In this document: piece by piece, positions 30,202 to 51,199 of the stretch
Layout: each line of letters starts with the position of its first letter
How positions within the stretch are numbered: the first letter of the stretch is position 1
Assembly: GCA_030681555.1 (NCBI GenBank)
Contig: JAUXRW010000038.1
Coordinates: 1 to 63,651 of the forward strand
DNA length: 63,651 bases
Direction of reading: 5' to 3'
Origin: Acidimicrobiales bacterium
GTDB taxonomy: Bacteria > Actinomycetota > Acidimicrobiia > Acidimicrobiales > VFJN01
Translations under genes and position numbers: made by a program
Notes under the pieces: generated by a model
Told to the model about the DNA's origin: nothing
What the model saw: only the letters and a program-made list of their open reading frames with translations
The model's database searches: none

Positions 30202-30202
30202 G

Positions 30203-34631: not shown

Positions 34632-34988
34632 ATGGCCACCACGCACCCGCTCATGGCGGAAGAGCACGAGGACGAGGTCCTCGATCGCGAGCCGGCACCG
34701 CGGCGCCGGGAGGTCGACTGGCGACAGCCGATGGCCTACGTGGCCATGGGTTTCTCCCTCCTCTCCTTCCTCGTCGGCTGGTTCCAGATCGCCAACACCG
34801 AGCAGGAGTGGGAGCAGCTCCCCTATCTCGCCTCGGCCGGTGGCGTCGGCGTCGTCGCCCTCGGGGTTGCAGTGGCGCTGCTCGTGTCGATCGAGCACAC
34901 CCGCGATCGTGAGGCGGTTGGCGAGCTGCTGAAGGAGATCCGCTCGCTGAAGCGGCGGATCGAGGCCATGGACAGCAGCACCGGGTGA
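34632..34988 (+). CDS. Small 2-TM membrane protein with QxPYLxS motif
   Basis: 118 aa; TM-EWEQLPYLASA-TM then coiled-coil; AAGGAG RBS. Confidence 0.78.
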   Translation: MATTHPLMAEEHEDEVLDREPAPRRREVDWRQPMAYVAMGFSLLSFLVGWFQIANTEQEWEQLPYLASAGGVGVVALGVAVALLVSIEHTRDREAVGELLKEIRSLKRRIEAMDSSTG

Positions 34989-35040
34989 TGACGACAGCGG
35001 CTCCGACCCCGGAGCCCCGGACGCGCAGGGAGACATCGCA

Positions 35041-36585
35041 GTGAACGGTCACCACCGCACAAGGCAGGTCGAGCGAGGCAAAGGGCTGCGGGGATGGGTG
35101 CTGGCGTTGACGATGGCGCTGCTCGCCTCCGCCTGCGGGTCGATGGTCGACAGTGCGTCCGTCCGTGCCAACGGCCCTGGTGCGGAGGGCGTGGCGTCGG
35201 ATGCCGACGGCAGCACCGACGCCGGGCTGTCGACCAACGTCGGTGATGGTGGCTCGACGCCCGGTGGCACCGCGGGAGGCAGCGCGGGCGCCGGCGGAGG
35301 CGCCGGCGGAGGCGCCGGGACAGGCACCGCGGCCGGCGGAGGCACCGGTGGGGCGGGACCCTCGGGCGCATCCGCCGGGGGTACGCCGCTCCAAGGCTTC
35401 ACCGACGACGAGATCCGCATCGGGCTGACCGCGCCCATCTCGGGCCTCTTCGGCGAGGTCATCGGCGAGGAGATCTCGGGCACGCTCGACTCCTACTTCA
35501 AGGATCTCAACGCCCGGGGTGGCATCGGTGGGCGCAAGCTGCGGCTGATCGCCTACGACGACGCCTTGGACCTCACCCAGACGCTCATCAACGTCCGGCG
35601 CCTGTGGGAGCAGGACAAGGTGGCCATGGTGCTCACCACGTTCCCGGACGGCGTGGCCGACTACGTCACCCGCAACAAGATCCCGACCTTCGTGCTGGGC
35701 TTCAGCGCCTCGGCGTTCAGCTCCGCCTACCCCACAATCTTTCCGATCCTGCAGAGCGGGGCCAGCGCCACCTACTCCTTCACCTACGGGTTGAAGGAGG
35801 CCGGCGTCCCCACCGAGGGCATGCGGGTGGGGATGCTCTACGACACGCAGATCATCGACACCCGGCCCTACCTCGACTCCGCCAAGGACGCCTGGAGCAT
35901 CGTGGGCTCCGAGGTGGTGGCCGCCGAGCCGTTCAACTTTGCCGACGGCGACTGCACGGCGCTCGTGGTGAAGATGCGCGACCTGAACATCGACTGGTGG
36001 GACTTCGAGGGGCTGGGCTGGTCGTTGTGCGTGTCGGCGGCGCAGCGCCAGAACTACGAGCCCAAGGTGGGCTGGGGCAACTGGCCGACCAACATCGGCT
36101 ATCTGGCCAAGTACGCCGGCCCCCACGTTGACGGCGTGTGGTTCATGGCTCCGGCCGACGAGAACTCGGGGTACCCCCGCCAGCGCACGCCGGAGCACCA
36201 GCGCTACCTCGAGGTGCTCAAGCGCTACCACCCTCGCCTCACCGACCCGGTGCACCTCGACTCCGTGGTCACGCAGACCTACTGGATCGTCGGCCGGGTG
36301 ATCGAGGCGGCGTCGAACGCGATCAAGGACAACCCGACGCAGGAGGGCATCATCGGCTACCTGCAGGGCATCAAGAACTTCGACACGGGGATCGCGCCTC
36401 CCATCGAGAGCTGGGCGCCGGACTGCAAGGTGGGCGTCAACACCATCTGGATCGGTGTGTGGCGGTGGAAGGACGGAGGGCCCGCCCGAGAGCCCCGTTC
36501 CGGCTACCTGTCCAACCCGTTCGCCAGGGAGCGCTACGGCCAGTGCTTCGTGACCGAGCTGGCCGACGCAGTGGTCAAGAAGTAG
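35041..36585 (+). CDS. LIV/HAAT-type ABC substrate-binding lipoprotein
   Basis: Lipobox LLASAC, Gly/Ala linker, GFTDDEIRIG, GGIGGRKLRLIAYDD. Confidence 0.9.
   Translation: MNGHHRTRQVERGKGLRGWVLALTMALLASACGSMVDSASVRANGPGAEGVASDADGSTDAGLSTNVGDGGSTPGGTAGGSAGAGGGAGGGAGTGTAAGGGTGGAGPSGASAGGTPLQGFTDDEIRIGLTAPISGLFGEVIGEEISGTLDSYFKDLNARGGIGGRKLRLIAYDDALDLTQTLINVRRLWEQDKVAMVLTTFPDGVADYVTRNKIPTFVLGFSASAFSSAYPTIFPILQSGASATYSFTYGLKEAGVPTEGMRVGMLYDTQIIDTRPYLDSAKDAWSIVGSEVVAAEPFNFADGDCTALVVKMRDLNIDWWDFEGLGWSLCVSAAQRQNYEPKVGWGNWPTNIGYLAKYAGPHVDGVWFMAPADENSGYPRQRTPEHQRYLEVLKRYHPRLTDPVHLDSVVTQTYWIVGRVIEAASNAIKDNPTQEGIIGYLQGIKNFDTGIAPPIESWAPDCKVGVNTIWIGVWRWKDGGPAREPRSGYLSNPFARERYGQCFVTELADAVVKK
35287..35320 (+). 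repeat. In-frame 12-bp tandem repeat in the SBP linker
   Basis: GGCGCCGGCGGA twice plus a partial copy, encoding GAGG repeats. Confidence 0.7.
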
Positions 36586-36646
36586 CGGCAGCCGCCGCCC
36601 GCCGAGCCAACGGGGCCCGGCGATCTGAACCAGGAGGTGTCTTTCC

Positions 36647-38614
36647 ATGGCCGAGCGCTACAGCCTGCTCCGAGCGCCGATCACGATCGGCGACTGCACG
36701 ATCCCCAATCGCATCGTCCGCACCGCCCACGCCACCGGCTTCGCCTTCGGCCTGGTCAGCGACCGCCTGATCGCCTATCACGAGGCTCGTGCCCGAGGCG
36801 GGGTGGGGCTCAACTTCCTGGAGATCGCCTCCGTGCACCAGACCTCGCCCGGGTCACTGATGGCCTGGGACGACATGGTGATCGAGGGTCTCACGACGAT
36901 CACCGACCGGATCCATGCCCACGGCTCCAAGGTGTTCCAGCAGCTGTGGCACGGCGGGGCCAACGCCAAGCCCTTCGACGGCACGCCCAGCTGGGCGCCC
37001 TCGGAGGTGCCCGAACCCACGTACAACACGATGCCCCAGGCGATGACCAAGGCGATGATCGACGAGGTGGTCGACGGGTTCGGGTCGGCCGCCAAGCGAT
37101 GCCAGACGGCGGGCATGGATGGGGTGGAGATCCACGGTGCCCACGGCTACCTGGTGGGCCAGTTCCTCAGCCCCAAGACGAACCTGCGGACCGACGACTA
37201 CGGCGGATCCCTCGACAACCGGGTGCGCTTCGCGGCCGAGGCGCTCGCGTCCATACGAGCCGCGGTAGGCCCTGGCTTCCCGGTCGGGATCCGCCTCTCG
37301 GGCACGGAGGGGATCCCCGACGGCATCCAGCCCCATGAGGCAGCAGCCACCGCCGCGATGCTCGAGGCCCAGGGCCTCGTCGACTTCGTCAACGTCTCGA
37401 TGGGCAGCTACTACGCGTTCTCGAAGTTCATCGGGGCGATGCACGAGCCGCTCGGCTACGAGCTGCCGACCAGTCGGGTCGTAACAGCCGCCGTCCGGGT
37501 TCCGCGGATCGTCACGGGGCGGATCATGGATCTCCACGACGCCGAACGGGTGATCGCGGACGGGATCGCTGATCTGGTGTCGATGGTGCGCGCCACCATC
37601 GCCGACCCCGAGATCGTGGCCAAGAGCTTCGCCGGCGAGGCCGACCGCGTCCGCCCCTGCCTCAGCTGCAACCAGGGGTGCGTCGGCGGCATCTTCGGGC
37701 CCGCCGCTTCCCTCGGTTGCGTGGTGAACCCGGACGCGGGGCACGAGCACCTCGGCATCGACCCCTACCCGGCGGCGCCGAAGACACGCAACGTGGTCGT
37801 GGTGGGCGGGGGACCAGCCGGCCTGGAAGCGGCCAGCACCGCAGCTCGCCGAGGTCACTCCGTGGTGCTGTGCGATGCGGCCGACGAGCTCGGGGGCCAG
37901 CTCCGCTGGGCCCGACGGGCGCCTCATCGCCAGGACATTGCCGCTTCCACGGACTGGCTCGTGGAGGAGTGCCGGCGACTCGGCGTCACGCTGCACACCG
38001 GGACGCTGGTAGACCTCGCGTACCTCGAGGGTCTCGAAGTCGATGCCGTGATCCTGGCCACCGGCGCCGAGCTCCGTCGCGACGGGGTCCAGGCGCAGCG
38101 CCCTGACGCCGAGGTGCCTGGCGTCAGCCTCCCCCACGTGGCCACCACCATCGACGTCCTCGGTGGGTGGACCAAGCCGGCCGAGCGGGCCGTCGTCTTC
38201 GATGATCGTGGGGACATCGGGGCGGTGTCGGTCACTGAGCACCTCCTGGCACAGGGGATGGAGGTGGTCCTGGTGACGAGCCGTGCGGAGATCGCGGCGG
38301 AGCTGGGCCCGTCACTGCAACGCGAGCCCGCCCAGCAGCGGCTCCGGTCGCACCCGCGGTTCCAGGAGCGGGTCGCGCAGGCGCTCGTGTCGGTGAGCGA
38401 CTCGAGCGTGACCATCGAGGGCCTCGACGACGCCAGGTCGGAGATACTTCCCGCAGACCTCGTGGTGCTCGACACGGGCGCTGAGCCGCGCCGCGACCTC
38501 CTCGCCGAGCTCGAGGCGGCTGGCTACGAGGTGCATCTCGCCGGCGACGCGCTGGCGGCCGAGGATCTGCAGCACGCGATGGCCAGCGCTCGGGAGGTGG
38601 CGAGGTCGGTTTGA
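36647..38614 (+). CDS. Old-yellow-enzyme Fe-S flavoprotein (2,4-dienoyl-CoA reductase / BaiCD-like family)
   Basis: GVEIHGAHGYL, NLRTDDYGGSL.NR, CLSCNQGC, VVGGGPAGLEAA. Confidence 0.92.
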   Translation: MAERYSLLRAPITIGDCTIPNRIVRTAHATGFAFGLVSDRLIAYHEARARGGVGLNFLEIASVHQTSPGSLMAWDDMVIEGLTTITDRIHAHGSKVFQQLWHGGANAKPFDGTPSWAPSEVPEPTYNTMPQAMTKAMIDEVVDGFGSAAKRCQTAGMDGVEIHGAHGYLVGQFLSPKTNLRTDDYGGSLDNRVRFAAEALASIRAAVGPGFPVGIRLSGTEGIPDGIQPHEAAATAAMLEAQGLVDFVNVSMGSYYAFSKFIGAMHEPLGYELPTSRVVTAAVRVPRIVTGRIMDLHDAERVIADGIADLVSMVRATIADPEIVAKSFAGEADRVRPCLSCNQGCVGGIFGPAASLGCVVNPDAGHEHLGIDPYPAAPKTRNVVVVGGGPAGLEAASTAARRGHSVVLCDAADELGGQLRWARRAPHRQDIAASTDWLVEECRRLGVTLHTGTLVDLAYLEGLEVDAVILATGAELRRDGVQAQRPDAEVPGVSLPHVATTIDVLGGWTKPAERAVVFDDRGDIGAVSVTEHLLAQGMEVVLVTSRAEIAAELGPSLQREPAQQRLRSHPRFQERVAQALVSVSDSSVTIEGLDDARSEILPADLVVLDTGAEPRRDLLAELEAAGYEVHLAGDALAAEDLQHAMASAREVARSV

Positions 38615-38651
38615 CTCGCCTCGACAGCGGCGCCCTCGGCCCGTTCTCAGG

Positions 38652-39332
38652 TCACGGTGCCGACGCCGCAGCGGCACGCTGGTCGACCAGCGTGCCGGCG
38701 AAGAGGCGTTCGACCACGAGCACCGCAGCAGTGTGCTCCTCAAGGCCCTCATCGAGGGTGGCGAAGTGGGCCAGCCCCGTCGTGATGGACAGGAGCATGT
38801 TGGCGACGGCCCCTGGCGACACGTCCGGCTGCAGCTCGCCGGCGTCGGCGGCGTCCTGGGCCAGCTGGTGGAAGAAGCCAAGACCGCGGCCCCACAGCTC
38901 GGCAGGGACCCGATCGGCGAGGTCCTTGTGCCTGAGCAGCTCGACCGGGTACACCGTGCTGAACCGAGCCAGGGAGGCGTCTTCTCGATGCAGCTCGATC
39001 GCGATGTCGAGCAGCCCGCGAACCCGGTCGACGAAGCTCGACGATTCCTCGAGCACACGGTCGAACTCGCTGAAGATCCGGGTCACCACCTGCTCGGTGA
39101 CCGCCCCGAACAGCTCGTCCTTGGAGTCGAAGTAGTGGTAGATCGCGCCGGCCGTCAACCCGGCCCGCTCGCCGATGTCGCGGTTGGTGGTGCTGGCGTA
39201 TCCGAGCTCGGCGAAGCAGCTGCGGGCGGCTCCGAGGATGCGCTCCCGGGTCTCGGCGCTCTCGGCGGCGGGCGGCCTCCCGAGAGGTCGGGCGGTCTTC
39301 CGTCGGCTTGGTCGGCTGCTCGTTGGGCCCAT
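38652..39332 (-). CDS. TetR/AcrR-family regulator
   Basis: TRERILGAARSCFAELGY...GLTAGAIYHYFDSK; likely start MGPTSS at 39332. Confidence 0.92.
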   Translation of the reverse strand: MGPTSSRPSRRKTARPLGRPPAAESAETRERILGAARSCFAELGYASTTNRDIGERAGLTAGAIYHYFDSKDELFGAVTEQVVTRIFSEFDRVLEESSSFVDRVRGLLDIAIELHREDASLARFSTVYPVELLRHKDLADRVPAELWGRGLGFFHQLAQDAADAGELQPDVSPGAVANMLLSITTGLAHFATLDEGLEEHTAAVLVVERLFAGTLVDQRAAAASAP

Positions 39333-39361
39333 GGAGACGGCTCCTGTACGTGAATCGCGGG

Positions 39362-39408
39362 TTGACCGGGCGCTCGCTGCAATCCTATGATATCTAATCA
39401 ACAGATTA
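39362..39408 (+). promoter_or_regulatory. Promoter and palindromic operator in the tetR/Rieske divergent region
   Basis: TTGACC-18 nt-TATGAT followed by the perfect palindrome TAATC-AACA-GATTA (39395-39408). Confidence 0.65.
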
Positions 39409-39470
39409 AATAGCCCATTGCCGGGCGCCAGAAACAATAGGCGTGAGCGAAGGTCCCAGGAGGAACGGTA

Positions 39471-40871
39471 GTGGACATGAATTCAGCTGGGCCTGCTGGT
39501 GCGGTGCGATCCCCGGGGGCGACGGTGCAGCAACTCCTCGACCGGGACAGCCATGAGGTCCCGGTGACACTCCGCGTCCACGCAGCAGCGGATCTCGGCG
39601 ATGCCGACCTGTCCGTGGACCGGTATTTGTCCCGGGAGTTCCACGACCTCGAGGTCGAGCGGCTGTGGGGCCGGGCTTGGCAGCTCGCTTGCCGCGAGGA
39701 GGACATCCCGGAGGTCGGCGACACGACGATCTACGACATCGCCGACCGGTCGCTTCTCATCGTGCGAGAGGCCCCGGAGCGCATCCGGGCGTACCACAAC
39801 GCGTGCCTCCACCGTGGCCGCCAACTGCGGTCCGAGCCCGGGTGGAACGCCGAGCTCCGGTGTCCCTTCCACGGTTTCACGTGGCGCCTCGATGGGAGCC
39901 TCAAGGAGATCCCGTGCGACTGGGACTTCCCCCACGTCGACCCGGCAGCGTTCGCGCTCCCGGAGGCGCTGGTGGCGACCTGGGGCGGCTGGGTGTTCAT
40001 CAACATGGACCCCGCCGCCGCCCCGTTCGAGGACTTCATGGGAACCTTCGCCGAGCACTTCCCGTGGCGCCAGGAGGACCTCACCAAGGGGGTTCACGTG
40101 GCCAAGGTGCTCCGCGCCAATTGGAAGGTTGCGCTCGAGGCCTTCATCGAGTCGTACCACGTGATCGCCACGCACCCCCAGCTCCTGGTGAGCCTCGGCG
40201 ACGCCAACACCCAGTACGACGTCTTCGACGAGCAGCCGCGGTGGAACCGGATGATCACCGCGATGGGCACACCGTCGCCTCACCTGCCCTACGAGGTTTC
40301 CGAGCAGGACATCATGGACGACCTCATGGAGCAGTTCATGGGGCCCGGCGTCACGTTTCCACTAGCTGAAGGCAAGACAGCGCGCGAGATGATGGGCGAC
40401 CTGATCCGGGGGCAGGTCGGTGGCGTGACCGGTGAGCCCTGTGAGGTCTCCGACTCGGAGGCCTTCGACGCCATCGAGTACTACCTGTTCCCGAACTTCG
40501 TCCCATGGGGGGGCTACTCGCGGATCAACTACCGGTTCCGGCCCTATGGCAACGATCCCGACATGTGCATCATGGACGTGATGCTGCTCGCCCCCTTCAA
40601 CAAGGCGGAAGGCCGGCCACCGGCGCCGCCCGTGCACTGGCTCGGACCCGACGACGAGTGGACCGACGCGCCGGAGCTGGGCCTCCTGGCCAAAGTGTTC
40701 GTGCAGGACACCTTCAACATCCCTCGCGTCCAGCGGGGCCTGAAGGCGACCGTGAAGCCCGGTGTCACGCTGGCGCACTACCAGGAGAGCCGGATCCGCC
40801 ACTATCACCAGGAGCTGGATCGCTGGCTCCAGGTGGAACTCGCCCCGAGCACGAACGGCCACTCAGGGTGA
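39471..40871 (+). CDS. Rieske non-heme iron oxygenase alpha subunit
   Basis: CLHRG...CPFHG Rieske cluster, NWK..EAFIESYH...H, distal Asp in VQD. Confidence 0.94.
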   Translation: MDMNSAGPAGAVRSPGATVQQLLDRDSHEVPVTLRVHAAADLGDADLSVDRYLSREFHDLEVERLWGRAWQLACREEDIPEVGDTTIYDIADRSLLIVREAPERIRAYHNACLHRGRQLRSEPGWNAELRCPFHGFTWRLDGSLKEIPCDWDFPHVDPAAFALPEALVATWGGWVFINMDPAAAPFEDFMGTFAEHFPWRQEDLTKGVHVAKVLRANWKVALEAFIESYHVIATHPQLLVSLGDANTQYDVFDEQPRWNRMITAMGTPSPHLPYEVSEQDIMDDLMEQFMGPGVTFPLAEGKTAREMMGDLIRGQVGGVTGEPCEVSDSEAFDAIEYYLFPNFVPWGGYSRINYRFRPYGNDPDMCIMDVMLLAPFNKAEGRPPAPPVHWLGPDDEWTDAPELGLLAKVFVQDTFNIPRVQRGLKATVKPGVTLAHYQESRIRHYHQELDRWLQVELAPSTNGHSG

Positions 40872-40879
40872 AGCACGCC

Positions 40880-41053
40880 ATGAGCGGGGCGGAGTACGAT
40901 TTCGACCCGGAACAGGGATTGGTTCGCGTGGTCGACCGTGATGGTCGGGAAGGCTTCTTTCATCCCGACGGTCGGTGGCACTCGGGCGAGCTGCGCTTCG
41001 CCGATCCGCAAGCGTGCTCGTGGGTCGCCGGCCCCGCCCTGCCGGCCTTTTGA
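40880..41053 (+). CDS. Small hypothetical protein coupled to the Rieske gene (57 aa)
   Basis: MSGAEYDFDPEQGLVRV...GRWHSGELRFADPQACSWVAGP; upstream in-frame GTG overlaps the Rieske stop. Confidence 0.65.
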   Translation: MSGAEYDFDPEQGLVRVVDRDGREGFFHPDGRWHSGELRFADPQACSWVAGPALPAF

Positions 41054-41116
41054 TTACGGTCCGGACATCGCCCAAACTGTCATATCGCTAGGCCACCCAA
41101 GGAGGACATCGTTCCA

Positions 41117-41503
41117 ATGAGTCACGAGTTCATGTCAGACGACTGGTTCAACGCCGTCGAGGCGCTCGCCGCAGAGGCACCCGAACCGCCCGCCGCCCTC
41201 AAGGACCTCACCGTCAACGTCGTCGTCAGCGGGGGGCCCGAGGGGGAGAAGGAGGCGCATCTGGCTGCAGGCCTCTTCAACCGTGGGCTCTCCGATGCCG
41301 CGTCCACGAAGCTGACAGTTCCCTTCGACACCGCGAAGGCCATGTTGATCGAGGGCAACCCCCAGGCCGCCATGCAGGCGTTCATGTCCGGACAGATCAA
41401 GGTGGAGGGAGACATGACCAAGCTCATGGCCATGCAGACCGCCGGTGCGCCGACGCCGGAGCAGGCCGCCTTCCAGGAAAAGCTCAAGGCGCTCACGGCG
41501 TAA
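41117..41503 (+). CDS. SCP2 sterol/lipid-binding domain protein
   Basis: 128 aa; FMSDDW start and AFMSGQIKVEGDM C-terminal SCP2 motif; AAGGAGG RBS. Confidence 0.85.
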   Translation: MSHEFMSDDWFNAVEALAAEAPEPPAALKDLTVNVVVSGGPEGEKEAHLAAGLFNRGLSDAASTKLTVPFDTAKAMLIEGNPQAAMQAFMSGQIKVEGDMTKLMAMQTAGAPTPEQAAFQEKLKALTA

Positions 41504-41560
41504 GAAGCGCGGAGGCTTCGCCGGAAGGTGCCGGTGTGGTTCCCGTAAACGGCATCTGAC

Positions 41561-41596
41561 GCCCCGGTCGGGCCGAGTTTAGGGCCCGACCGGGGC
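41561..41596 (+). terminator. GC-rich hairpin, probable terminator
   Basis: 14-bp perfect stem GCCCCGGTCGGGCC / GGCCCGACCGGGGC with an 8-nt loop after the SCP2 gene. Confidence 0.7.
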
Positions 41597-41627
41597 GGCA
41601 GTCACTGCGCCCCCAAGCAGGCAGGAG

Positions 41628-42407
41628 TTGGCAACGTTGACCCGTGTGAGCGAACCCGCCTCAAGCGAGGGCCCGCCGGCGGCATCAGGATCCTCCCGCA
41701 CCAGGGCGATCCGTCATAGCCTCATTCGGCGCCGAACGGCCGAGCACTTGCGGCGTTCGGTCGACACGTCCGCACACGTCTACTCGTCGATCGAGGTCGA
41801 CTTCGAGGCGGTCGACGCGGTGCGTCGGGTGCGGGCAGCGGACTGGAAGCAGCGGGAGGGCTTCGGGCTGTCGTACCTTCCCTTCACCGCGCGGGCGGCC
41901 GCACAAGCTATCGCGACCTTTCCGGAGGTGAACGGTACGTTCACCGCCGATGCCTTGCTGGTTCACGCCGACGTGCACCTGGGCATTGCGGTCGACCTCG
42001 ACTTCAAGGGCCTCATGGTCCCAGTGGTGCGGGATGTCACGTCCAAGAAGGTGCCCGCGATCGCACGCGAGGTGCACGAGCTCGCGAGGCGTGCTCGAGC
42101 CAAGGAGCTGGCGCGCGAGGACGTCGTCGATGGCACGTTCACCATCACGAACCCGGGGCCCTACGGCACTCTGCTCACGATGCCGATCATCAACCAGCCA
42201 CAGGTGGCCATCCTCGCCACCGACGGGGTGCGACGCCGACCCGTCGCCGTGACGGGCGCCGACGGGTCCGAGGACATCGTCGTACACCCCGTGGGAAACA
42301 TCGTGCTCACCTGGGACCATCGCGCCTTCGACGGGGCCTACGCGGCCGCGTTCCTCAACGAGATCAAAGAACGCCTCGAGACCTCTGACTGGGACTCGGA
42401 GTTCTGA
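41628..42407 (+). CDS. Stand-alone 2-oxoacid dehydrogenase E2 acyltransferase catalytic domain
   Basis: 259 aa; IRRRTAEHL, GTFTITNPG, MPIINQPQ, DHRAFDG; no lipoyl or E3-binding domain. Confidence 0.9.
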   Translation: MATLTRVSEPASSEGPPAASGSSRTRAIRHSLIRRRTAEHLRRSVDTSAHVYSSIEVDFEAVDAVRRVRAADWKQREGFGLSYLPFTARAAAQAIATFPEVNGTFTADALLVHADVHLGIAVDLDFKGLMVPVVRDVTSKKVPAIAREVHELARRARAKELAREDVVDGTFTITNPGPYGTLLTMPIINQPQVAILATDGVRRRPVAVTGADGSEDIVVHPVGNIVLTWDHRAFDGAYAAAFLNEIKERLETSDWDSEF

Positions 42408-42510
42408 GCGCCCTCAGCGAGCGCAAAGTCGCTCTGCGCGATGGACCGTGGTGAGGGCCTCGCTGGGTAACTGTGAGGGGCCACCGTTGAGGCCAACCGT
42501 GGCCTCATAA

Positions 42511-43484
42511 GAGGCCGCGCGGATAGGCGCTGAGGAAGACCATCCACCGGTCGTGGTGATGGCCCGGTTTTGATGCCGGGCGCATCCCAAGACCACGACC
42601 AGGTGGAGGTCCCCCTCATCATGCGCGCGTTCGACCCCGAAGTGGGAGATGCCGTCTGGCACGCCCTTGAGCCGCTGGTGCCTGTGCCTGTCGATGATCA
42701 TCCGTTGGGCTGCCATCGGCCCCGTATCCCTGACCGGGTCTGCTTCCAAGGGATCCTCATCCGCCTCGTCACCGGCTGCGCCTGGGTCGACGTCGAGACG
42801 CTCCTTGGCGGGCAGGTCTCCGACACCACCCTTCGGGCCCGGCGCGACGGGTGGATCGCCGCCGGGGTGTTCGACGCGCTCATCGCAGAGGCCCTGGCTG
42901 CCTATGACCGCATCATCGAGCTCGACCTCACCGAGGTGAGCCTGGACGGCTCTCAACACACGGCACCCTGCGGGGGCGAAGGGACCGGCCCGAACCCCAC
43001 CGATCGGGGCCGTTCGGGCTGGAAGTGGTCGATCGTCGCCGGCGCCGATGGGATCCCGTTCGGGTGGGCGCTCGACGGCGCCAACCGCCACGACATGCGA
43101 CTGCTCGAACCCACCCTGGCAGCGGCCGCCCAGCGCGGGCTGCTCACGGACATCGAAACCCTGCATCTCGATCGGGGCTACGACAACGGCGTCACCCGGA
43201 CGCTGTGCGACAGGCTCGGCCTCGACGACTTGGTCTGTGCTCGCAAACGGTCCCGCGGCGTCACGAAGCTCAAGAAGAAGCTCGTGCCGCTCGGGATGCG
43301 CTGGCCCATCGAACGCACCAACTCCTGGCTGTCGAACTTCGGGCAGCTCCGCCGCAACACCGACCGCCGAACCCAGCACCGCCACGCCCAACTCTCCCTC
43401 GCCGTAACCCTGCTCATCACCGCCAAACTCATCGACTGGCGCGACCGCTGGAGCCCGGAGTGAAGCACCTATCCGCGCACGCTC
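42511..43484 (+). mobile_element. IS5-family insertion sequence (974 bp)
   Basis: Terminal IRs GAGgccGCGCGGATAGGcGCT and (rc) GAGcgtGCGCGGATAGGtGCT enclose a transposase; flanks are TAA and TGA. Confidence 0.88.
42570..43463 (+). CDS. IS5-family transposase
   Basis: RPRIPDRVCF..ILIRLVTGC.W, SLDGS, LDRGYD, RWPIERTNSWL. Confidence 0.92.
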   Translation: MMPGASQDHDQVEVPLIMRAFDPEVGDAVWHALEPLVPVPVDDHPLGCHRPRIPDRVCFQGILIRLVTGCAWVDVETLLGGQVSDTTLRARRDGWIAAGVFDALIAEALAAYDRIIELDLTEVSLDGSQHTAPCGGEGTGPNPTDRGRSGWKWSIVAGADGIPFGWALDGANRHDMRLLEPTLAAAAQRGLLTDIETLHLDRGYDNGVTRTLCDRLGLDDLVCARKRSRGVTKLKKKLVPLGMRWPIERTNSWLSNFGQLRRNTDRRTQHRHAQLSLAVTLLITAKLIDWRDRWSPE

Positions 43485-44071
43485 TGAGTCGGCCCGCAGC
43501 TCCCGGCCGTCGTCGAGCTCGACGCGGTCGGGTCCCACAGCGACGGCCCCGGCCGGGAACTCCTCGACGCCGAGCTTCTCGCCAGCGAGGGCCAGGGCGG
43601 CGAGCGCCTTGCGCGGGTTGACCTGGTGATCGCCGGGGACCCACAGGCCCCCTCGTGTGCCGGGCCCCAGGGCCGGTTCATGCCGGCGGACCGCCCGGCC
43701 CGACAGTCGCTCGACGTGAAGTCCGAGTTCGTCGAGGTAGCCGGCGAGGTAGTGGAGTGGAGCTCGGTCATGTCGTCGCCGTCGCGGGCGACTGCGAGGG
43801 TGCCGCACTCGACGAACCCGGGATCCGCCCCGACCTCCCGCCCCAGCTCGGCGGCGAAGCTCGGCCACCGTCGGGCCGATGCGAGGTTCAGGCCGAGCAG
43901 GGCCTCCTCCCCGTAGTGGATCTCGGTAACCGGCGCCAGCATCCCCGCGGCCACCTGCGCCGCCGCCCGCGACGGGTCGGGATCGACGAGGACGACCCGC
44001 ACTCGACGCTGTGCGAGCCGCCACGCCACGGCCCGCCCGATGATCCCGGCGCCGACGACGACGGCCCTCAC
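43485..44071 (-). pseudogene. thiO: Glycine oxidase, 5' part; frameshift near 43760 and truncated by IS5
   Basis: VVVGAGIIG, AAGMLAP; second frame LERLSGRAVRRHEPAL..GGLWVPGDHQVNPR; ends at RELRADS/IS. Confidence 0.85.
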
Positions 44072-44680
44072 GACAGCAGATCCAGGAGCTCGGCCACCGC
44101 GCCGACAGGATCGGGGGCCCCGTAGACCCCCCCCACCACCGCCACGCCCCAGGCGCCGGCGTCGAGCAGCTCAGGCACATGCTTGGCGGTCACACCGGCG
44201 ATGGCGATGACCGGCACCCCGACCGCCCGGGCGATCGTCTCCACGCCGGCCGGTCCGATCGCATCGGGAAGCCCTGTCTTGGTCGAGGTCACATACGTGG
44301 GACCCACACCCTGACGCCGGCGGCGACGGCCCGGCGGGCCGCCTGTGGGTTCCGGCAGGTGGCGCCGACTACGGCGTGGTCGCCGAGCAGGCGCCGCACC
44401 ACCGCGACCGGGAGGTCGTCGTCTCCGACGTGCACCCCGTCGGCGCCGAGGGCGAGGGCCACATCGGCACGGTCGTTGACCAGGCATGTAGCCCGGGCAT
44501 CCCGCGCTGCAGCGAGGATCTCAGCGGTGTGGGCGAGGCGGACCCGGTCGATCACGTCCTTGGTCCGGACCTGCACCAGCGGCGCACCCGCTGCGAGTAC
44601 GGCCCGGGTGGTGTCGACGACGCTCGACTCCGCCACCGGTGGGGTGACCACGTGCAATCGGGGGATGTCGGGTATCTCGG
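44068..44680 (-). pseudogene. thiE: Thiamine-phosphate synthase, frameshifted near 44315
   Basis: VQVRTK, LVNDRADVAL..GADGVHVG; other frame GVGPTYVTSTK, PVIAIAGV; no clear start codon. Confidence 0.85.
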
Positions 44681-44772
44681 GCTCCCTGCGTCGGCATGAT
44701 CCGCATCAGGTTCATACGGTCGAGGGCGGTGTCAGCCCTCCTCTCAGCCCGCTGCCGCGGACTCCCGTGTCG
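44681..44772 (-). ncRNA. TPP riboswitch (THI element)
   Basis: Minus strand GGGAG...CTGAGA...GACCGTATGAACCTGATGCGGATCATGCCGACGCAGGGAG directly upstream of thiE. Confidence 0.93.
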
Positions 44773-44974
44773 GCGCCCACCATAGCGGCACACCGCTGCC
44801 GCCGTGCCCGAAGTCCCCCACACAATCTTCGCCGTACGCGGAGGACCTCGGTGTCGTTCCAGAGGTCGTGCTCAATCCGCGCGCGAGACCCCAGACGGGC
44901 CCCCGGATCGGATGACACACCTTGATCCCAGAGGCGGACGTCCCCTTCCCGTGAACCGGAGTGAATGCCGGCGG

Positions 44975-45018
44975 TTGACACCCTATCGATGATAGGTGAT
45001 ACTCCGATCACCGATAGG
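44975..45018 (+). promoter_or_regulatory. Promoter with two tetO-like operators
   Basis: TTGACA-CCCTATCGATGATAGGT-GATACT, then CCGATC-ACC-GATAGG. Confidence 0.75.
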
Positions 45019-45034
45019 AGAAACGGAGCGACTG

Positions 45035-45517
45035 ATGGCCTTCCTGCAACAGACCCTCGACCACGACGAAGTGAGCCTGGTGATGGCGAGCACACCAGAG
45101 GTGCTCTACGACCTTCTCTCGGACGTCACCCGCATGCGCGAGTTCAGCCCCGAGGTCGTCGAGAGCCGGTGGATCGACGGGGCGACGGGCCCGGCCGTCG
45201 GCGCCCGGTTTGCGAACAAGAGCAGGTTCAGCCGGGGCCCGGCGATCGGCAACAAGGCGACGATGACCGTCCTTGAGCCCGGCAAGAAGGTGGCGTGGAG
45301 CCGGACCGAGCCGTTCGGCGGCACGGTCGAATGGGCCTACGAGCTCCTTCCGCACGCGGAGGGCGTCGAGGTCGTCGAGTCGTACTCCTTCAGCCGGCCG
45401 GTCAGCCGGATCGGCTGGCTGATCATCACCCCGTTCACCAGCCGCGACCGAGGGGCGCAGATGCACGCCGGCATGGAAGAGACCCTGCAACGGCTCCGTA
45501 GGTACGTCGAGTCCTAG
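45035..45517 (+). CDS. SRPBCC/START-like (polyketide cyclase) ligand-binding protein
   Basis: LYDLLSDVTRMREFSPE...GPAVGARF...W.Y..; 160 aa. Confidence 0.88.
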   Translation: MAFLQQTLDHDEVSLVMASTPEVLYDLLSDVTRMREFSPEVVESRWIDGATGPAVGARFANKSRFSRGPAIGNKATMTVLEPGKKVAWSRTEPFGGTVEWAYELLPHAEGVEVVESYSFSRPVSRIGWLIITPFTSRDRGAQMHAGMEETLQRLRRYVES

Positions 45518-45521
45518 TCAG

Positions 45522-46106
45522 GTGAGCACCAGCAAGGTCACGGTCCGACGAGAGGCAAAGATCGCCTCGATCGTCGCAACGGCGTGGGAGCTCGCGGAGG
45601 CGGACGGTGTCGCGGGCCTCTCCCTGCACGCGCTGGCGCGGGCGGTGGGACTGCGCCAGCCGTCTCTCTATGAGTACTTCGACTCGAAGCATGCGCTGTA
45701 CGACGAGATGTTCGCCGATGGCAACCGCCAGCTCCAGGCCCACCTTGCCGCGTTGACGTTGCCGCGGGAACCGCGGCGTGCGCTGAAGAGGTATCTGGGC
45801 GCGCTCGCTTCGTTCGCACTCGAGCGCCCGGCTCGCTACGAGCTCATGTTCCTGCGTCACCTGCCGAACTTCACGCCGTCGGACGCGTCCTACGCGATCG
45901 CTGGCGAGGTGCTCGGCACCTTCGTGGAGCGGATGACGGCCGCTGGAGTGACGAAGCCCGACGATGTCGACTGCCTGGTGGCGATGACCGCCGGGCTCAT
46001 CGATGCGCAGCTGGCAAACGAACCGAACACGGACCGGTGGATCCGCCACCTCGATCGTCTCATCGACCTCCTGGTCGACGACGCGATCCGGAGGAGTGCC
46101 CAGTGA
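45522..46106 (+). CDS. TetR/AcrR-family regulator
   Basis: LSLHALARAVGLRQPSLYEYFDSK HTH; ARYELMF. Confidence 0.92.
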   Translation: MSTSKVTVRREAKIASIVATAWELAEADGVAGLSLHALARAVGLRQPSLYEYFDSKHALYDEMFADGNRQLQAHLAALTLPREPRRALKRYLGALASFALERPARYELMFLRHLPNFTPSDASYAIAGEVLGTFVERMTAAGVTKPDDVDCLVAMTAGLIDAQLANEPNTDRWIRHLDRLIDLLVDDAIRRSAQ

Positions 46107-46249
46107 TCAACGAACCAGCGAACCCGGCGACATCCAGCGCACCGTGGCTCCTCATCGCCGGGCGGGGAGCGTCGACCATCGGTGACGGCTGTTACGCGGT
46201 GGCCTTGCCCTTGTTCGTCCTCGGTGATCACGGCAGTGCTGCGACGCTC
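46103..46249 (+). pseudogene. 5' fragment of an MFS transporter, truncated by IS debris
   Basis: GTG overlaps the tetR stop; WLLIAGRGASTIGDGCYAVALPLFVL resembles MFS TM1. Confidence 0.6.
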
Positions 46250-46254
46250 AAAAA

Positions 46255-46368
46255 AGCGCGACGATCGAGATGGTCACCGAGTTCCGCAACCGACCCCTCG
46301 ATCAAGGCCCCTACACGTATGTGTGGATAGACGCGCTCACGCAGAAGGTCCGCAAGGGCGGGAGGTAT
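46255..46368 (+). mobile_element. IS256-family transposase internal fragment
   Basis: EMVTEFRNRPLDQGPYTYVWIDALTQKVRKGGR. Confidence 0.82.
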
Positions 46369-47012
46369 GGCGGGTTCAGGCGGTGGCCGCAACGACCTGC
46401 GCGTAAGCCTCTGATGGTGTCATGTACCGAGGGTCTTGCGGGGACGGCCGTTGAGGCCGCGCTGGATGCGCTTCAGATCGGCAGCCGTCTGCTTGGAAAG
46501 GTCGGTGCCCTTGGGCAGGTATTGGCGCAGGAGCCCGTTGGTGTTCTCGTTCGAGCCGCGCTGCCAAGGCGAGTGCGGGTCGCAGAAGTAGACCGGGATC
46601 CCCGTCGCTGTCGTGAAGGTCGCGTGGGTCGACATCTCCGCTCCTTGGTCCCACGTGATCGACCGTCGCAGCTCGCCAGGCAGCGTGGCGACGGCCCGAC
46701 GCATCGCGGCCTCGACGCTCACCGCGGAGCGGCCGTCGGGGAGGTGCAGGAGCAGCACGAGCCGAGTGGTCCGCTCGACCAGGGTGCCCACAGCGCTGCG
46801 GCCACCCTCGCCCAAGATGAGGTCGCCTTCCCAGTGGCCAGGCACAGCGCGATCGGCGACCTCGGCGGGCCGTTCGGAGATGTTGACCATGTTCGGGATC
46901 CGGCCCCGGCGTTCGACGATGCCCTCCGATCCGAGTATCCGGCCCCGTCACCAGCAGCGGGTGGACCCTCCCGACTCCACGCGGAAACGACCCGTCTCCA
47001 GGAGGCGGGGTA
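46369..47012 (-). mobile_element. IS30-family remnant (3' half and right end)
   Basis: [52 protein letters not shown]; end GTTGCGGCCACCGCCTGAACCCGCC. Confidence 0.9.
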
Positions 47013-47536
47013 ACGGAGAACGTCCTCGCCCGCGTCCCAAAGGCCTCCACCGAGATGGTCGCCGCCGCGATCCGCACGATCTTCGCTCAACCCGGAGCAC
47101 GTCCGCTCCCAACTGACCGAAGTCACCACCATGCTGCAGAGCCAGTTCCCCGACGTCGCCGACATGCTCACCGACGCCGCCGACGACCTCCTCGCGTTCA
47201 CCGGCTTCCCCCAAGCCCACTGGCGCAAGATCTGGTCAACGAACCCCCTCGAACGGCTCAACGGCGAGATCAAGCGCGCACCAACGTCGTCGGCGTGTTC
47301 CCCAACGACGCCTCCGTCGCCCGGCTCGTCACCGCCGTCGTCGTCGAGACCCACGACGAATGGGCCGTCGCCGAACGCCGCTACCTCTCCGAAGAATCCA
47401 TGGCCAAGCTCTACGCGAAGCCCGAACCCGACACCATCGTCGAGGAGCCGCCCCTCGTCATCACCGCCTGAGCCACACTGTCAACGACATCGAGCTCACG
47501 CCGACGTCGAACTACACCACTCCGCGGGGCGTCATC
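47013..47536 (+). mobile_element. IS256-family remnant (3' part, two frameshifts, right end)
   Basis: NVLARVPK..MVAAAIRTIFAQP, IWSTNPLERLNGEIKR, VGVFPN, HDEW..RRYLSE; end CTACACCACTCCGCGGGGCGTCATC. Confidence 0.88.
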
Positions 47537-47688
47537 CGACTCGAAGCGCTACCGTCTTGCGCGACAGTAAGGACAAATGATAGAAATTTTTTCTCTGGAC
47601 GTCTTAAAGAAGAAGGTCGCAGACTCCCGGTCGGCGAACCCTGGGGAGAGTCGTCGACCGTGGGTCGAAACAGGAGGGGGGGGTCTCG

Positions 47689-49068
47689 ATGCGACGAACG
47701 ATGAAGGTGTTGGCCATGTTGAGCACGCTCGGTCTACTGGCCGCGTGTGCTTCCACCGTCCCGGGCGGCGCAGGTCAGAACGCGGCGCTCGCCACCCGAA
47801 ACCAAGCCACCGGCGGTCTTGGCCCGACGGCGGCAACCGGGCCCGGACAGACCTCCGGGCCCGGACAGACCTCAACCCAAGCTAGCGGCAACGACCAGAC
47901 TGCCGCAGTCGGTGACGGATCGCAGGCCGACGCGGCCGGACCTGCCCAGGCAGCCAGCGGGGACCCGATCAAGATCGGCGCGATCTTTCCAGTGGGCTCG
48001 GGTTTCGGACAGGTGCTCGACGCGAACGGGCTGATCGGCATCTCGGAGAAGTACATCGCCAAGATCAACGCGGAGGGCGGCATCAATGGCCGGCCGGTGC
48101 AACTCGTTTGGTACGACGACGGCTTCGACCCGACCAAGGGCGTCGAGCTCGTCCGCAAGCTCGTCGAACAGGACCAGGTGCTCGCGCTCGTGAACCCCAT
48201 CACGACCTTCACGATCGAAAACGCAGCGCAATATCTGGCCGACAACGGTGTGACCACGATCGCGCCTGACGGGTACCAGGCGATCTCGTACCAATCGCCG
48301 TGGATCTACCCGGTCACCAACTTCTTTGACCGGCAGGGCTACCGCATCGGCAAATACCTGAGTTGCGATCTCGGCATCAAGCGCGTCGGCGTCTGGAGCA
48401 TCGGTACCTATGACGGGTCCCGTCGCGGCGGCGATGCGATCGTGAAGGGAGTCCAGGAGTGTGGCGGCACCGTGACCGACCGCGAGGATGTGTCGATGTG
48501 GGAGGCGAATTTCACGCCGTTCATCCTGCGCATGCGCGGCTCCAACCCGGACGTCATTGCCTCATCGATGCACCCCCTCGGCGACGCCCTCATGGTCACG
48601 ACTGCCCAGGCGCAGAACTACAAGCCGCCGAAGGGGATGATGTTCCTCTCCGCCACGGCAGGTTTCAGCGCGATCGCCGAGGGCTTTGGCGACTACGGCA
48701 ACGGTTTCTACGCAGTCTCGGAGTTCGACGGCGCCTCGGTGAGCGCCGACAACCAGAAGTTCCAGGAGTTCGCTTCTTGGGCGCGCGACAACGGGTTCAA
48801 TCCGCTCGATCGGTTCCCACAACAGATGTGGGCCGGGTTGGAGATCTTCCGCACGGCCGCGACGAGCGCAGGGGCCAACCTCGACCGGGCGAGCTTCAAA
48901 GCAGCGCTCGACGCGCTGCCGGCATTCGATTTCGGCTTCGCTTGCCAACCGATCCAGTTCGGCGCAGGGCCCCACGACCCGAACCCTTGCCTGCGGGTGG
49001 TCCAGTGGGACGCGAGCGACAAGGTTTGGAACACGGTCGTCCCATTCGCTCCAGCACCGAAGCCCTGA
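47689..49068 (+). CDS. LIV/HAAT-type ABC substrate-binding lipoprotein
   Basis: Lipobox LLAAC, Thr/Gly/Gln linker, DPIKIG, GGINGRPVQLVWYDDG. Confidence 0.92.
   Translation: MRRTMKVLAMLSTLGLLAACASTVPGGAGQNAALATRNQATGGLGPTAATGPGQTSGPGQTSTQASGNDQTAAVGDGSQADAAGPAQAASGDPIKIGAIFPVGSGFGQVLDANGLIGISEKYIAKINAEGGINGRPVQLVWYDDGFDPTKGVELVRKLVEQDQVLALVNPITTFTIENAAQYLADNGVTTIAPDGYQAISYQSPWIYPVTNFFDRQGYRIGKYLSCDLGIKRVGVWSIGTYDGSRRGGDAIVKGVQECGGTVTDREDVSMWEANFTPFILRMRGSNPDVIASSMHPLGDALMVTTAQAQNYKPPKGMMFLSATAGFSAIAEGFGDYGNGFYAVSEFDGASVSADNQKFQEFASWARDNGFNPLDRFPQQMWAGLEIFRTAATSAGANLDRASFKAALDALPAFDFGFACQPIQFGAGPHDPNPCLRVVQWDASDKVWNTVVPFAPAPKP
47837..47872 (+). repeat. Exact 18-bp tandem duplication in the SBP linker
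   Basis: CCGGGCCCGGACAGACCT twice (GPGQTS repeat). Confidence 0.8.
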
Positions 49069-49071
49069 TCG

Positions 49072-50712
49072 ATGGCCGACCGCAGGCGGTACCCGGGACA
49101 CCGACGTACGCGATGGCTGCGGCAGGCGTACATCAGCGCGATTGCGTTAACCGTGCTTACAGTCGCTCTTGTGCCCTCGGTCGCGACCACGCAACGGGCC
49201 CACGCCGACGAGCCCACCGGGCAGCCGACGCCGCCCGACGCTGCATCGCTCGGCCCGACCGTCGGCGATGCTGCGGCCGTACGCGCTCGCTGGCGCCAGC
49301 TGAGCGCATCGGCCGATGCCTACGGCGTCCGAGCCGGCCAGCAGTCGGGCGTCATCAAGGTGAACCTCGCCCGCGCGTTCACTGAGGCGACCGACAGCCC
49401 GCTCAGCCACGCATTGGCATCCCCGGTCGATGTCGGCGCCGTCCAGGTGCTGCTCGGGCTCGCGCTCAACCTGCCGTTCCCGGTGTCGTCGGAGACCCTC
49501 TACCCAGCGGGTGCGACAGACCAAAGCTTCGATGACACGTCGCCCGGCGCAGCCCTCAACCCCTTGGTGCCGGTAGCGGCACGCTCGCTGTACTCGGAGG
49601 CCCACAGTCGGCCAGCGCCCTCCGCGACGGCCTACACCAGCTACGCAGGCGCCAACACCAAGGACACGAGCGACCTGCTGAAGCTCGCCTCGAACGCGGT
49701 GGTGTTGGCGAAAGGCACCGCCGAGGTCGCGCTCGGCCCGGTGGTGGGCGACGCCGCCCAAGACATCAGCTCGTTGATCGATCAGCTCTCAGTTGCGGCC
49801 GCACTGCTCGAGTCGGTGGGCGACATCGTGCAGGTCGAGAACGTCGCCTCTCGTTCTGACACCGTTGACACCGAGGACGGCAAGGTGCGCGCTGAGGCAG
49901 TCACTGAGCTGTCGGGTGTCACGATCGCCGGGGTCCTCAAGATCGACGCGATCCTCTCCCGTACCGTTGTCACGTTCGATCCGGCCCGGGGCGCCGACCC
50001 CTATGACCCTCAGCAGAGCACCTTCATCGGTGGGGCATCGGTGCTGGGCATACCAGTCAACATCGACCAAAATGGCATCAACGTCGCCGGTGCCGGCCTA
50101 GGTGTTACCCCCGTCGTCACGTCGGCGCTGTCCAGCGCGCTCTCGCAATCCGGCGTCCTCGATGTGCGCATCACCGCACCGTTGATCGTACGGGACGAAA
50201 CCACGGGCGCAGTGGACGCGACCACTGGGGCTCTTCGCATCAACTTCAACCCGCCGAAGGCGCTCAGCGATCTCGTCAACGTCCTTACCCCACTCGAGGT
50301 GGCTCTCGGCGAGACGCACGTCAAGCTCAAAGCAGTACCAGCTCCCGTAGCGCCCTCGACGCCCAGTGCAGAGGCGCCGAGCGGCGGCGGACAAGGCTCC
50401 GGGACCCGTCAACCGGTCGACTCGTCAGTGACCGCACGCCTCCCGACGACCAAGCCGGCGACCAGCATCGAAGTGACCCCGACGCGCCCATCGGCATCCA
50501 CATCGAACACAGACGCCACGTTACCGATTGGGTTCAGCGAAGTCGATGAGATCCTCCTATGGCTGCTCGTCATTTCCGGCGTCAGCTTGCTGATCTCGAT
50601 CGCTCAGCTGTGGCGATGGACGACCGAAGGCGAGACCGGCGCGACGCTCTACAGCCGTGCTGGCGCAGTTCTCGGGGAGCGCCTGGTCGCTGGCCGAACG
50701 ACACTCCAATGA
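49072..50712 (+). CDS. Secreted beta-rich protein with C-terminal membrane anchor (transporter accessory candidate)
   Basis: Signal QRAHA-D; GVTIAGVLKIDAI and IGGASVLGIPVNIDQNGINV; Pro/Ser/Thr linker; TM ILLWLLVISGVSLLISIAQLW. Confidence 0.78.
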   Translation: MADRRRYPGHRRTRWLRQAYISAIALTVLTVALVPSVATTQRAHADEPTGQPTPPDAASLGPTVGDAAAVRARWRQLSASADAYGVRAGQQSGVIKVNLARAFTEATDSPLSHALASPVDVGAVQVLLGLALNLPFPVSSETLYPAGATDQSFDDTSPGAALNPLVPVAARSLYSEAHSRPAPSATAYTSYAGANTKDTSDLLKLASNAVVLAKGTAEVALGPVVGDAAQDISSLIDQLSVAAALLESVGDIVQVENVASRSDTVDTEDGKVRAEAVTELSGVTIAGVLKIDAILSRTVVTFDPARGADPYDPQQSTFIGGASVLGIPVNIDQNGINVAGAGLGVTPVVTSALSSALSQSGVLDVRITAPLIVRDETTGAVDATTGALRINFNPPKALSDLVNVLTPLEVALGETHVKLKAVPAPVAPSTPSAEAPSGGGQGSGTRQPVDSSVTARLPTTKPATSIEVTPTRPSASTSNTDATLPIGFSEVDEILLWLLVISGVSLLISIAQLWRWTTEGETGATLYSRAGAVLGERLVAGRTTLQ

Positions 50713-50752
50713 TCGACGAATCCAGCGTTTGCGCTCGAGAGGGGATTGCTCA

Positions 50753-51199
50753 ATGACCGCCTCCCATTCGACCCCGGACCCGACCGACGGGGTCACGGAG
50801 GGCCAAACGACGAACCGCCGGCACCCCGGCATACCTCTGGATCGCAGCCTCACGATGCTCGTGCTTGGCATGGTGTCGGGAGCAGGGGGCCTTGTCGGCA
50901 TGTTCGTCTCGCTCAGCCGAGTCCGGCCCGAACCCGAGGTGTTCCGTCAATTCCCCTACCTCATCAGCGCGATCATCGCGACGGGCTTCTTCGTCGTCGG
51001 CGCCATCCTGGTGCTCGGCCACTTCGTCTGGCGTTCGTACCAGGAGACGCGGACCCTGACGCGCGAGTTGGAGGAAGCGGCGGCCGCCCTCATGTGGGAA
51101 CAGCTCGGGCTGCCAGCGGCGAACGGCTCACCGCCCGCGTCGGAGCCCGATCGAGGGGCGCGGCCGCTCACCTCAGCGCGGCGCAACACGGGTAGATGA
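50753..51199 (+). CDS. Small 2-TM membrane protein with QxPYLxS motif
   Basis: 148 aa; TM-EVFRQFPYLISA-TM then coiled-coil. Confidence 0.78.
   Translation: MTASHSTPDPTDGVTEGQTTNRRHPGIPLDRSLTMLVLGMVSGAGGLVGMFVSLSRVRPEPEVFRQFPYLISAIIATGFFVVGAILVLGHFVWRSYQETRTLTRELEEAAAALMWEQLGLPAANGSPPASEPDRGARPLTSARRNTGR

Follow-up and report, generated by a model that had tools for sequence, protein, structure and literature searches.

We analysed a stretch of 63,651 nucleotides from an Acidimicrobiales bacterium (GenBank assembly GCA_030681555.1, contig JAUXRW010000038.1), referred to below as the window, which has a G+C content of ~69% and carries two separate operons for ABC importers of the LIV/HAAT type, both on the plus strand. 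Each operon contains a gene for a small membrane protein, here called s1 (34632..34988, plus strand, 118 amino acids) and s2 (50753..51199, plus strand, 148 amino acids). A sequence-only reading of this DNA had singled out these two open reading frames (ORFs) through the segments EWEQLPYLASA and VFRQFPYLISA, and both the frames and the segments were recovered in our translations. Our results indicate that s1 and s2 belong to one family of two-helix hairpin proteins, which probably serve as auxiliary membrane subunits of actinobacterial LIV/HAAT-type ABC importers.

Both small genes have the hallmarks of translated operon members. A GGAGA sequence lies 5 nucleotides before the ATG of s1, which starts 9 nucleotides past the stop of the preceding permease gene; s2 has AGGGGA 7 nucleotides before its ATG, and its TGA overlaps the start of the following livH gene as ATGA. 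The Shine-Dalgarno sites, the close spacing of s1 and the overlap of s2 with livH therefore show that s1 and s2 are real, co-translated members of their operons.

In operon 1, on the plus strand, the first gene codes for a LivF-like ABC ATPase (29350..30201; Pfam ABC_tran, E = 2e-28; start codon uncertain) and the second for a LivG-like ATPase with a BCA_ABC_TP_C tail (30122..31108; ABC_tran, E = 2e-28), the match to the tail being below threshold (17.7 bits against a cut-off of 25.5, E = 0.003). The real start codon of this second gene is probably downstream of 30122. Then follow X1 (31105..32637), a secreted, beta-rich protein of 510 amino acids whose translation shows a signal peptide, a proline-rich stalk and a C-terminal transmembrane (TM) anchor; a fused LivH-LivM permease (32637..34622; PF02653, E = 8e-51) with two stretches of BPD_transp_2 domain (32667-33470 and 33684-34454); s1; and a substrate-binding protein of the Peripla_BP_6 family with a long N-terminal linker (35041..36585; PF13458, E = 4e-33). 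Operon 2, also on the plus strand, begins with a Peripla_BP_6 substrate-binding protein (47689..49068; PF13458, E = 2e-53), followed by X2 (49072..50712), a secreted, beta-rich protein of 546 amino acids with a C-terminal TM anchor according to its translation and AlphaFold2 model, by s2, by a LivH permease (51196..52059; PF02653, E = 1e-31), by a fusion of a LivM permease with a LivG ATPase (52056..54050; PF02653, ABC_tran and BCA_ABC_TP_C) and by a LivF ATPase (54051..54770; ABC_tran, E = 4e-27). Both operons are thus complete as LIV/HAAT importers, with two BPD_transp_2 domains, two ABC ATPases and a Peripla_BP_6 protein, all of them over the Pfam thresholds, so that the permease, binding-protein and accessory neighbours which had been claimed for the small genes are indeed found at both loci.

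The two small proteins share a common layout: a first TM helix (TM1), a loop of 4-8 residues, a segment Q-x-P-Y-L-x-S-A that opens a second TM helix (TM2), and a long helix with heptad spacing. In s1, TM1 spans residues 34-54, the segment Q62-L-P-Y-L-A-S-A69 opens TM2, and E88-H-x-x-D-R93 follows, with the heptad helix reaching residue 117; read from the sequence, the hydrophobic residues of this tail fall at 96, 99/100, 103, 106, 110 and 113, that is, at heptad spacing. In s2, the loop reads R-V-R-P-E, TM2 opens with Q66-F-P-Y-L-I-S-A73, and the cytoplasmic helix is ELEEAAAALMWE. The AlphaFold2 model of s1, built on an alignment of 26 sequences, has a mean pLDDT of 85 and consists of a helix at 31-54, a loop at 55-58 and one unbroken helix at 59-117; in this model the motif forms the first two turns of TM2, presumably at the outer face of the membrane. 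Both termini would be cytoplasmic, judging from the arginine-rich N- and C-terminal segments. The loop of s1 is acidic, and that of s2 has three arginines, so that the orientation of s2 is less clear. The predicted arrangement of helix, short loop with motif, helix and coiled coil is therefore supported by the s1 model, its in/out orientation coming solely from the distribution of charges.

Direct comparison of s1 with s2 by BLASTP gave no significant similarity (E = 0.66), and close homologues of each are few (15 clusters for s1 and 12 for s2), with the motif invariant inside each set. Alignment of the two family alignments with hhalign reported a probability of 91% (E = 1e-6), with the motif in the middle of the 48 aligned columns. 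In addition, a profile made from diverse family members without any sequence of the operon 2 type found s2 at E = 2.4e-10, as rank 4 among the 32,953 ORFs of its own genome; this profile matched just four ORFs of the genome, all of them family members, with no false matches. The full family profile scores s1 at E = 7.5e-37 and s2 at E = 5.7e-29. The shared motif is beyond chance because it is invariant within each family, lies at the centre of the hhalign alignment and belongs to a protein that the profile free of operon 2 sequences retrieves, and on these profile comparisons we take the homology of s1 and s2 as established.

Among 229 family members, the most conserved positions (s1 numbering) are Q62 (99%), S68 (97%), Y65 (92%), G70 (88%), a glycine at position 80 (88%), G73 (86%), P64 (84%), W50 (84%) and a glycine at position 42 (84%). 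The family signature hence comprises a TM1 with small residues at 35, 42 and 49 and a G-W end, a short loop, the sequence Q-x-P-Y-[LV]-x-S-[GA]-G-x-x-G-x6-G and, after TM2, an amphipathic helix assigned to the cytoplasm; s2 deviates from it in two places, as its TM1 has no G-W end and its motif no G-x-x-G continuation. The conserved motif QxPYLxSA, as originally put forward, is therefore common to two homologous proteins, but its final alanine is usually a glycine, the general form being Q-x-P-Y-[LV]-x-S-[GA]-G. Subsets of the family also conserve an N-terminal H-P-L, a D-W-R-Q before TM1 and an E-H-x-x-D-R after TM2. Tandem double hairpins are common (P0036, P0071, P0080, P0126 and others), and there are natural fusions in which a signal peptide, a low-complexity stalk and a TM anchor are joined to the hairpin (P0130 and P0161).

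A search of 1.84 billion representative proteins with a profile of the s1 and s2 families retrieved 1147 clusters (at 50% identity) at E <= 0.001, 89 of them at E <= 1e-10. Nearly all cluster members that bear a name are called "hypothetical protein", many of them from cultured Streptomyces species; the exceptions are one metagenome member named "Na+/proline symporter" and two UniRef entries named "Lipoprotein". The hairpin had no match passing threshold in Pfam, in NCBIfam or among PDB sequences, Foldseek with the hairpin model gave nothing significant (all E values above 0.001), and a literature search on accessory parts of LIV transporters, on HAAT and steroid uptake and on DUF6233 found nothing relevant. 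The hairpin family is thus undescribed in public resources, although proteins of this kind, small accessory membrane proteins of transporters, are known. Of 201 genomes chosen from the whole phylum, 46 encode the family, with a maximum of 8 copies; within the genus itself it is encoded by 12 of 15 genomes, and the copy number reaches 15.

The family is tightly linked to LIV importers, and the linkage is ancient. The genome from which the window derives has four members, namely s1, s2, one on contig C133 and one on contig C80, and all four lie inside LIV operons. The same genome has 22 BPD_transp_2 domains, corresponding to 11 LIV systems, 7 of which have no hairpin. The gene order on C133 is LivH-LivM fusion, X, s, ATPase, ATPase, binding protein, and on C80 it is binding protein, LivH, LivM, LivG, LivF, s (s standing for the hairpin gene and X for a relative of X1 and X2). 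A third LIV system within the window (19249-26206), in which the four core domains lie on a single chain of 1355 amino acids and a helical anchored protein follows, has no hairpin-family gene (no match to the family profile at E <= 1). Between the two transporter regions, at 46270-47013, there is a fragment of a Mutator-family transposase, recognised by a match of 32 residues only.

For a wider view we retrieved 60 loci of other actinobacteria, flanked by at most 9 kb on either side, and mapped LIV parts on them with profiles made from the genes of our genome; one false match was dropped, leaving 59. A LIV permease was found in the fetched flank of 48 of these loci, and in 36 of the 40 that have at least 8 kb on both sides, where it was always within 5.2 kb; the rate expected by chance, roughly estimated from the number of permeases per genome, is 2-13%. 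The sequence-only reading had named the lack of enrichment next to LIV-type genes as the outcome that would speak against it, and the enrichment turned out to be strong, in our own genome as well as in the fully flanked loci. The dropped match (L077:8938-9285, E = 5e-6) was a false positive without the Q-x-P-Y motif; the protein is nevertheless small, has two TM helices, comes from a genome of the same order and is encoded directly after two LIV ATPase genes, and may be another, unrelated small partner.

The most frequent layout, with 25 loci, is binding protein, LivH, LivM, LivG, LivF, X, s; the same order without X occurs in 7 loci, and in 11 loci s is divergent from the operon. Automatic counting placed s before LivH in 5 loci; several of these are artefacts caused by a neighbouring second operon, and the Streptomyces-type loci L062 and L064 are the clear cases. 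At one locus with a divergent hairpin gene, a secreted protein of 443 amino acids heads the LIV operon (L066:7471-8799, minus strand); it is not matched by the profile of the X family and may be a different surface accessory protein. A tight subclade of four loci (L082, L086, L089 and L096) has the motif Q-L-P-Y-V-I-S-G-G-F-G-G-F, and in the two of them that were examined (L082 and L096) the hairpin gene is beside an SDR gene, downstream of groEL.

The tree of the small proteins splits into two clades with 91% support. Clade A, which includes the C80 copy, lacks X, and its members often end in a zinc-binding tail; clade B includes s1, s2 and the C133 copy. When the gene layouts are mapped on this tree they require 18 changes, as compared to 34.5 for shuffled labels. 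In the permease tree, the permeases that accompany clade A group together in one clade with 100% support, and several subgroups of clade B reappear there with identical membership. Distances between small proteins correlate with those between their linked permeases (Mantel r = 0.83, p = 0.001), and a correlation is also seen for pairs of paralogues within the same genome (r = 0.55, n = 22). The clustered layouts, the matching trees and the correlated distances therefore show that the hairpin has accompanied its own transporter lineage across ancient duplications.

On contig C50 (1307-4613) lies the nearest paralogue of the operon 2 transporter, with a LivM that is 59% identical; here LivH comes straight after the binding-protein gene, and X and s are both absent. 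The X-s pair is therefore an add-on rather than part of the transport core, and its gain or loss is recent.

In clade B, s nearly always comes right after a gene for a protein of 440-550 amino acids that has a signal peptide and is anchored by a C-terminal TM helix. Within the window, X2 directly precedes s2, and the permease gene lies between X1 and s1. The X proteins are very divergent: BLASTP gave no significant alignment of X1 with X2, and jackhmmer connects them through intermediates. A profile built from 25 X proteins matches X1 at E = 4e-62 and X2 at E = 6e-70, each of them being itself a row of the alignment behind the profile. For 29 of the 32 clade-B loci that were fetched, the same profile matches the gene immediately preceding s, and 7 of these loci had not contributed to the X alignment; L056, L062 and L064 are exceptions, as are the contig-edge loci L045 and L058. 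The Streptomyces-type loci and L056 thus have no X. In our genome there are exactly three X genes, each beside a clade-B hairpin gene. A second X-family gene was seen at L049:14345-16092, after a second LIV operon, and the gene that follows it is an unrelated ORF of 104 amino acids with a single TM helix and a C-P-x-C motif, which is not a hairpin.

X belongs to no Pfam family, and X1 gave just a weak match to choice_anch_P in the domain search. The AlphaFold2 model of X2 (pLDDT 71) has long antiparallel strands and two long helices; Foldseek of this model against PDB found no match (E above 0.001, TM-scores of ~0.1). A likeness of the X model to porins and FadL was considered and rejected, since the matches are weak and reflect long beta-hairpins only.

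Taken together, these observations are best explained if the s1/s2 family consists of two-helix hairpin proteins that act as auxiliary membrane subunits of the LIV/HAAT-type importers with which they are encoded, an assignment that we consider probable. The hairpin would be embedded in the membrane, its two ends facing the cytoplasm. The small residues recurring every 7 positions in TM1 (35, 42 and 49) and the near-invariant polar and small face of TM2 (Q62, Y65, S68, G/A69, G70, G73 and G80) would allow tight packing on a partner helix in the outer leaflet. The partner helices of this Gly/Gln/Ser face would be those of LivH and LivM and, in clade B, also the anchor of X. The C-terminal heptad helix may pair two hairpins into a dimer. 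The tandem double hairpins and the stalk-anchor fusions would fit a dimer of this kind and a bundling with a single-pass anchor. In clade B, the hairpin would be made together with X and would probably bundle with the single C-terminal TM anchor of X, so as to keep this large beta-rich surface protein close to the LivH/LivM permease, where X might assist substrate capture or pass the substrate on to the tethered binding lipoprotein.

Several observations weigh against this assignment. Linkage and co-divergence are also expected from any function exerted at the level of the operon. The loci are phylogenetically related, so that the nominal P value for the linkage (7e-28) and the Mantel figures overstate the independence of the data, the effect still being large. 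The four-member subclade described above has no LIV genes within 9 kb, and the C-terminal TM helix of X, which would be the anchor bundled by the hairpin, shows little sequence conservation. One actinobacterial genome family has s in divergent orientation to the LIV operon, as is commoner for regulators. Finally, the Ada-like zinc module (DUF6233) of many clade-A members hints at a role in signalling or nucleic-acid binding.

The last two points would fit a different role, in which the hairpin is a membrane-embedded regulator or co-sensor that reads the state of the transporter or of the membrane and acts on gene expression or ATPase activity by way of its coiled coil and, in clade A, of its zinc module, much like the small proteins and "trigger transporters" that modulate sensors. 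Many clade-A members, including those from cultured Streptomyces, indeed end in a cytoplasmic H/C-x4-C ... C-x2-C module resembling an Ada-like zinc ribbon (L059, L062, L063, L066, L068 and others). One of these tails matches Pfam DUF6233 over the cut-off (28.1 against 27.6 bits), with the others weaker; matches to Ada_Zn_binding are weak, and a Streptomyces member of the family has a precomputed match to PF19746. DUF6233 itself has no known function and spans the clade-A tail only, not the hairpin. The conservation of the motifs that would face the cytoplasm (HPL near the N-terminus, DWRQ before TM1 and EHxxDR after TM2), as well as the dispensability of the module for the core transporter, would also agree with a regulator. 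However, s1, s2 and most of clade B have neither the zinc module nor a recognisable DNA-binding or signalling domain, s1 and s2 are translationally coupled inside a structural operon, and the usual co-occurrence with the surface protein X would be left unexplained, so that we find a regulatory role unlikely.

It is similarly improbable, in our assessment, that the hairpin helps to assemble or anchor envelope parts only, serving as a membrane chaperone or dock for X or for the tethered binding lipoprotein with no contact to the permease. The adjacency of X and s, whose genes overlap or are closely spaced, and the fusions of anchored stalks to the hairpin would be accounted for in this way; clade A, however, including the C80 copy, has no X and is still tied to LIV operons and co-diverges with the permeases. 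That the hairpin should be an unrelated small membrane protein (holin-like, stress-related or a glycine-zipper pore) merely travelling with LIV operons is very unlikely: TM2 is glycine-zipper-like, four loci are orphans and there is some similarity to the actinobacterial Holin-X and MnhG families of Pfam (best E = 0.0028 and 0.00028, in 3 and 6 of 26 members, respectively), but all of these matches are below the gathering threshold and typical of TM composition, no phage or lysis genes are adjacent to s1 or s2 in Pfam scans of their neighbours in the window, and the 90% LIV association in fully flanked loci and the co-phylogeny across ancient paralogues speak for a specific tie.

An auxiliary subunit is therefore the explanation that we retain, and it agrees in part with the sequence-only reading, which had proposed candidate structural subunits analogous to the Mam/Omam accessory proteins of Mce systems: the subunit role remains the best reading in view of the LIV linkage, and the likeness to Mam/Omam comes down to a loose functional analogy. 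From what is generally known of Mam/Mas, OmamA and LucA/LucB, the likeness is that these, too, are accessory membrane proteins encoded with an actinobacterial ABC importer for hydrophobic substrates. Beyond this the comparison is unsupported, with no similarity in sequence or fold found in Pfam, NCBIfam, PDB and Foldseek searches, a different architecture, and Mce operons that lie on other contigs. Mam/Mas proteins have one N-terminal TM helix followed by an extracytoplasmic domain, whereas the hairpin has two TM helices, almost nothing outside and a cytoplasmic helix, and its neighbouring transporter is of the LIV rather than the YrbE/Mce type. The hairpin matched no Pfam or NCBIfam family and no fold that would indicate similarity to Mam/Mas, a result obtained without direct comparison with named Mam sequences. 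The neighbours of s1 and s2 are BPD_transp_2, ABC_tran and Peripla_BP_6 genes, with no mce operon, which would comprise yrbE permeases and six Mce proteins with MlaD domains, beside either gene; the genome has 18 MlaD domains in three ordinary Mce operons, and its MlaD-domain genes are on contigs C1, C16, C138 and C84, none being in the window. A replacement of Mce by the module of X, s and LIV genes can be ruled out, since 19 of 30 hairpin-bearing genomes, our own included, also have MlaD-domain genes.

Compared with LIV-I and other HAAT systems (LivJ/K-LivH-LivM-LivG-LivF and UrtABCDE; TC 3.A.1.4), the host operons have the same full set of components, including one ATPase with a BCA_ABC_TP_C tail. 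They differ from the classic systems by the added hairpin and the large anchored X, and in their gene fusions (LivH-LivM in operon 1, LivM-LivG in operon 2). To our knowledge, the HAAT systems described so far consist of five components, with no small hairpin subunit or large anchored surface protein. Small membrane proteins that stand beside a large transporter, and are presumed to be bound to it, are known from MmpS with MmpL, AcrZ with AcrB and KdpF with KdpABC, where they are non-essential for the core mechanism. These proteins differ from the hairpin in being unrelated in sequence and having a single TM helix, no Q-x-P-Y-x-x-S-G-G motif and no coiled-coil tail, and we know of none that is associated with HAAT importers.

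The genes around the importers give some indication of what may be transported. Near operon 1 there are genes for a KstD-like flavoprotein, an old yellow enzyme (OYE)-type reductase and a Rieske oxygenase, and near a homologous locus there are thiolase, DUF35, MaoC, SCP2 and Rieske genes. These neighbouring catabolic genes therefore suggest hydrophobic or aromatic acids, rather than amino acids, as the substrates of the importers. Some Peripla_BP_6 proteins bind hydrophobic or aromatic acids. It is possible, and we put this forward tentatively, that a hairpin dimer, the anchored X, a binding lipoprotein on a long tether and the LIV core together make up an undescribed envelope uptake machine of Actinomycetota for hydrophobic or aromatic substrates, in which the hairpin would be the adaptor that couples a surface capture protein to the permease; such a machine would correspond to Mce systems in function, though with another ABC scaffold.

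If the subunit assignment is true, a major transporter family of the Actinomycetota, a phylum that includes Streptomyces as well as abundant uncultured lineages of soil and water, would have a widespread extra subunit, often paired with a surface protein, and its parts list would have to be altered. More than 1000 clusters of "hypothetical proteins" would thereby gain a context, together with a hint at the uptake of poorly soluble carbon sources. Since cultivated Streptomyces carry the hairpin gene directly before livH, in the order s-livH-livM-livG-livF, ordinary genetics would be applicable to these proteins.

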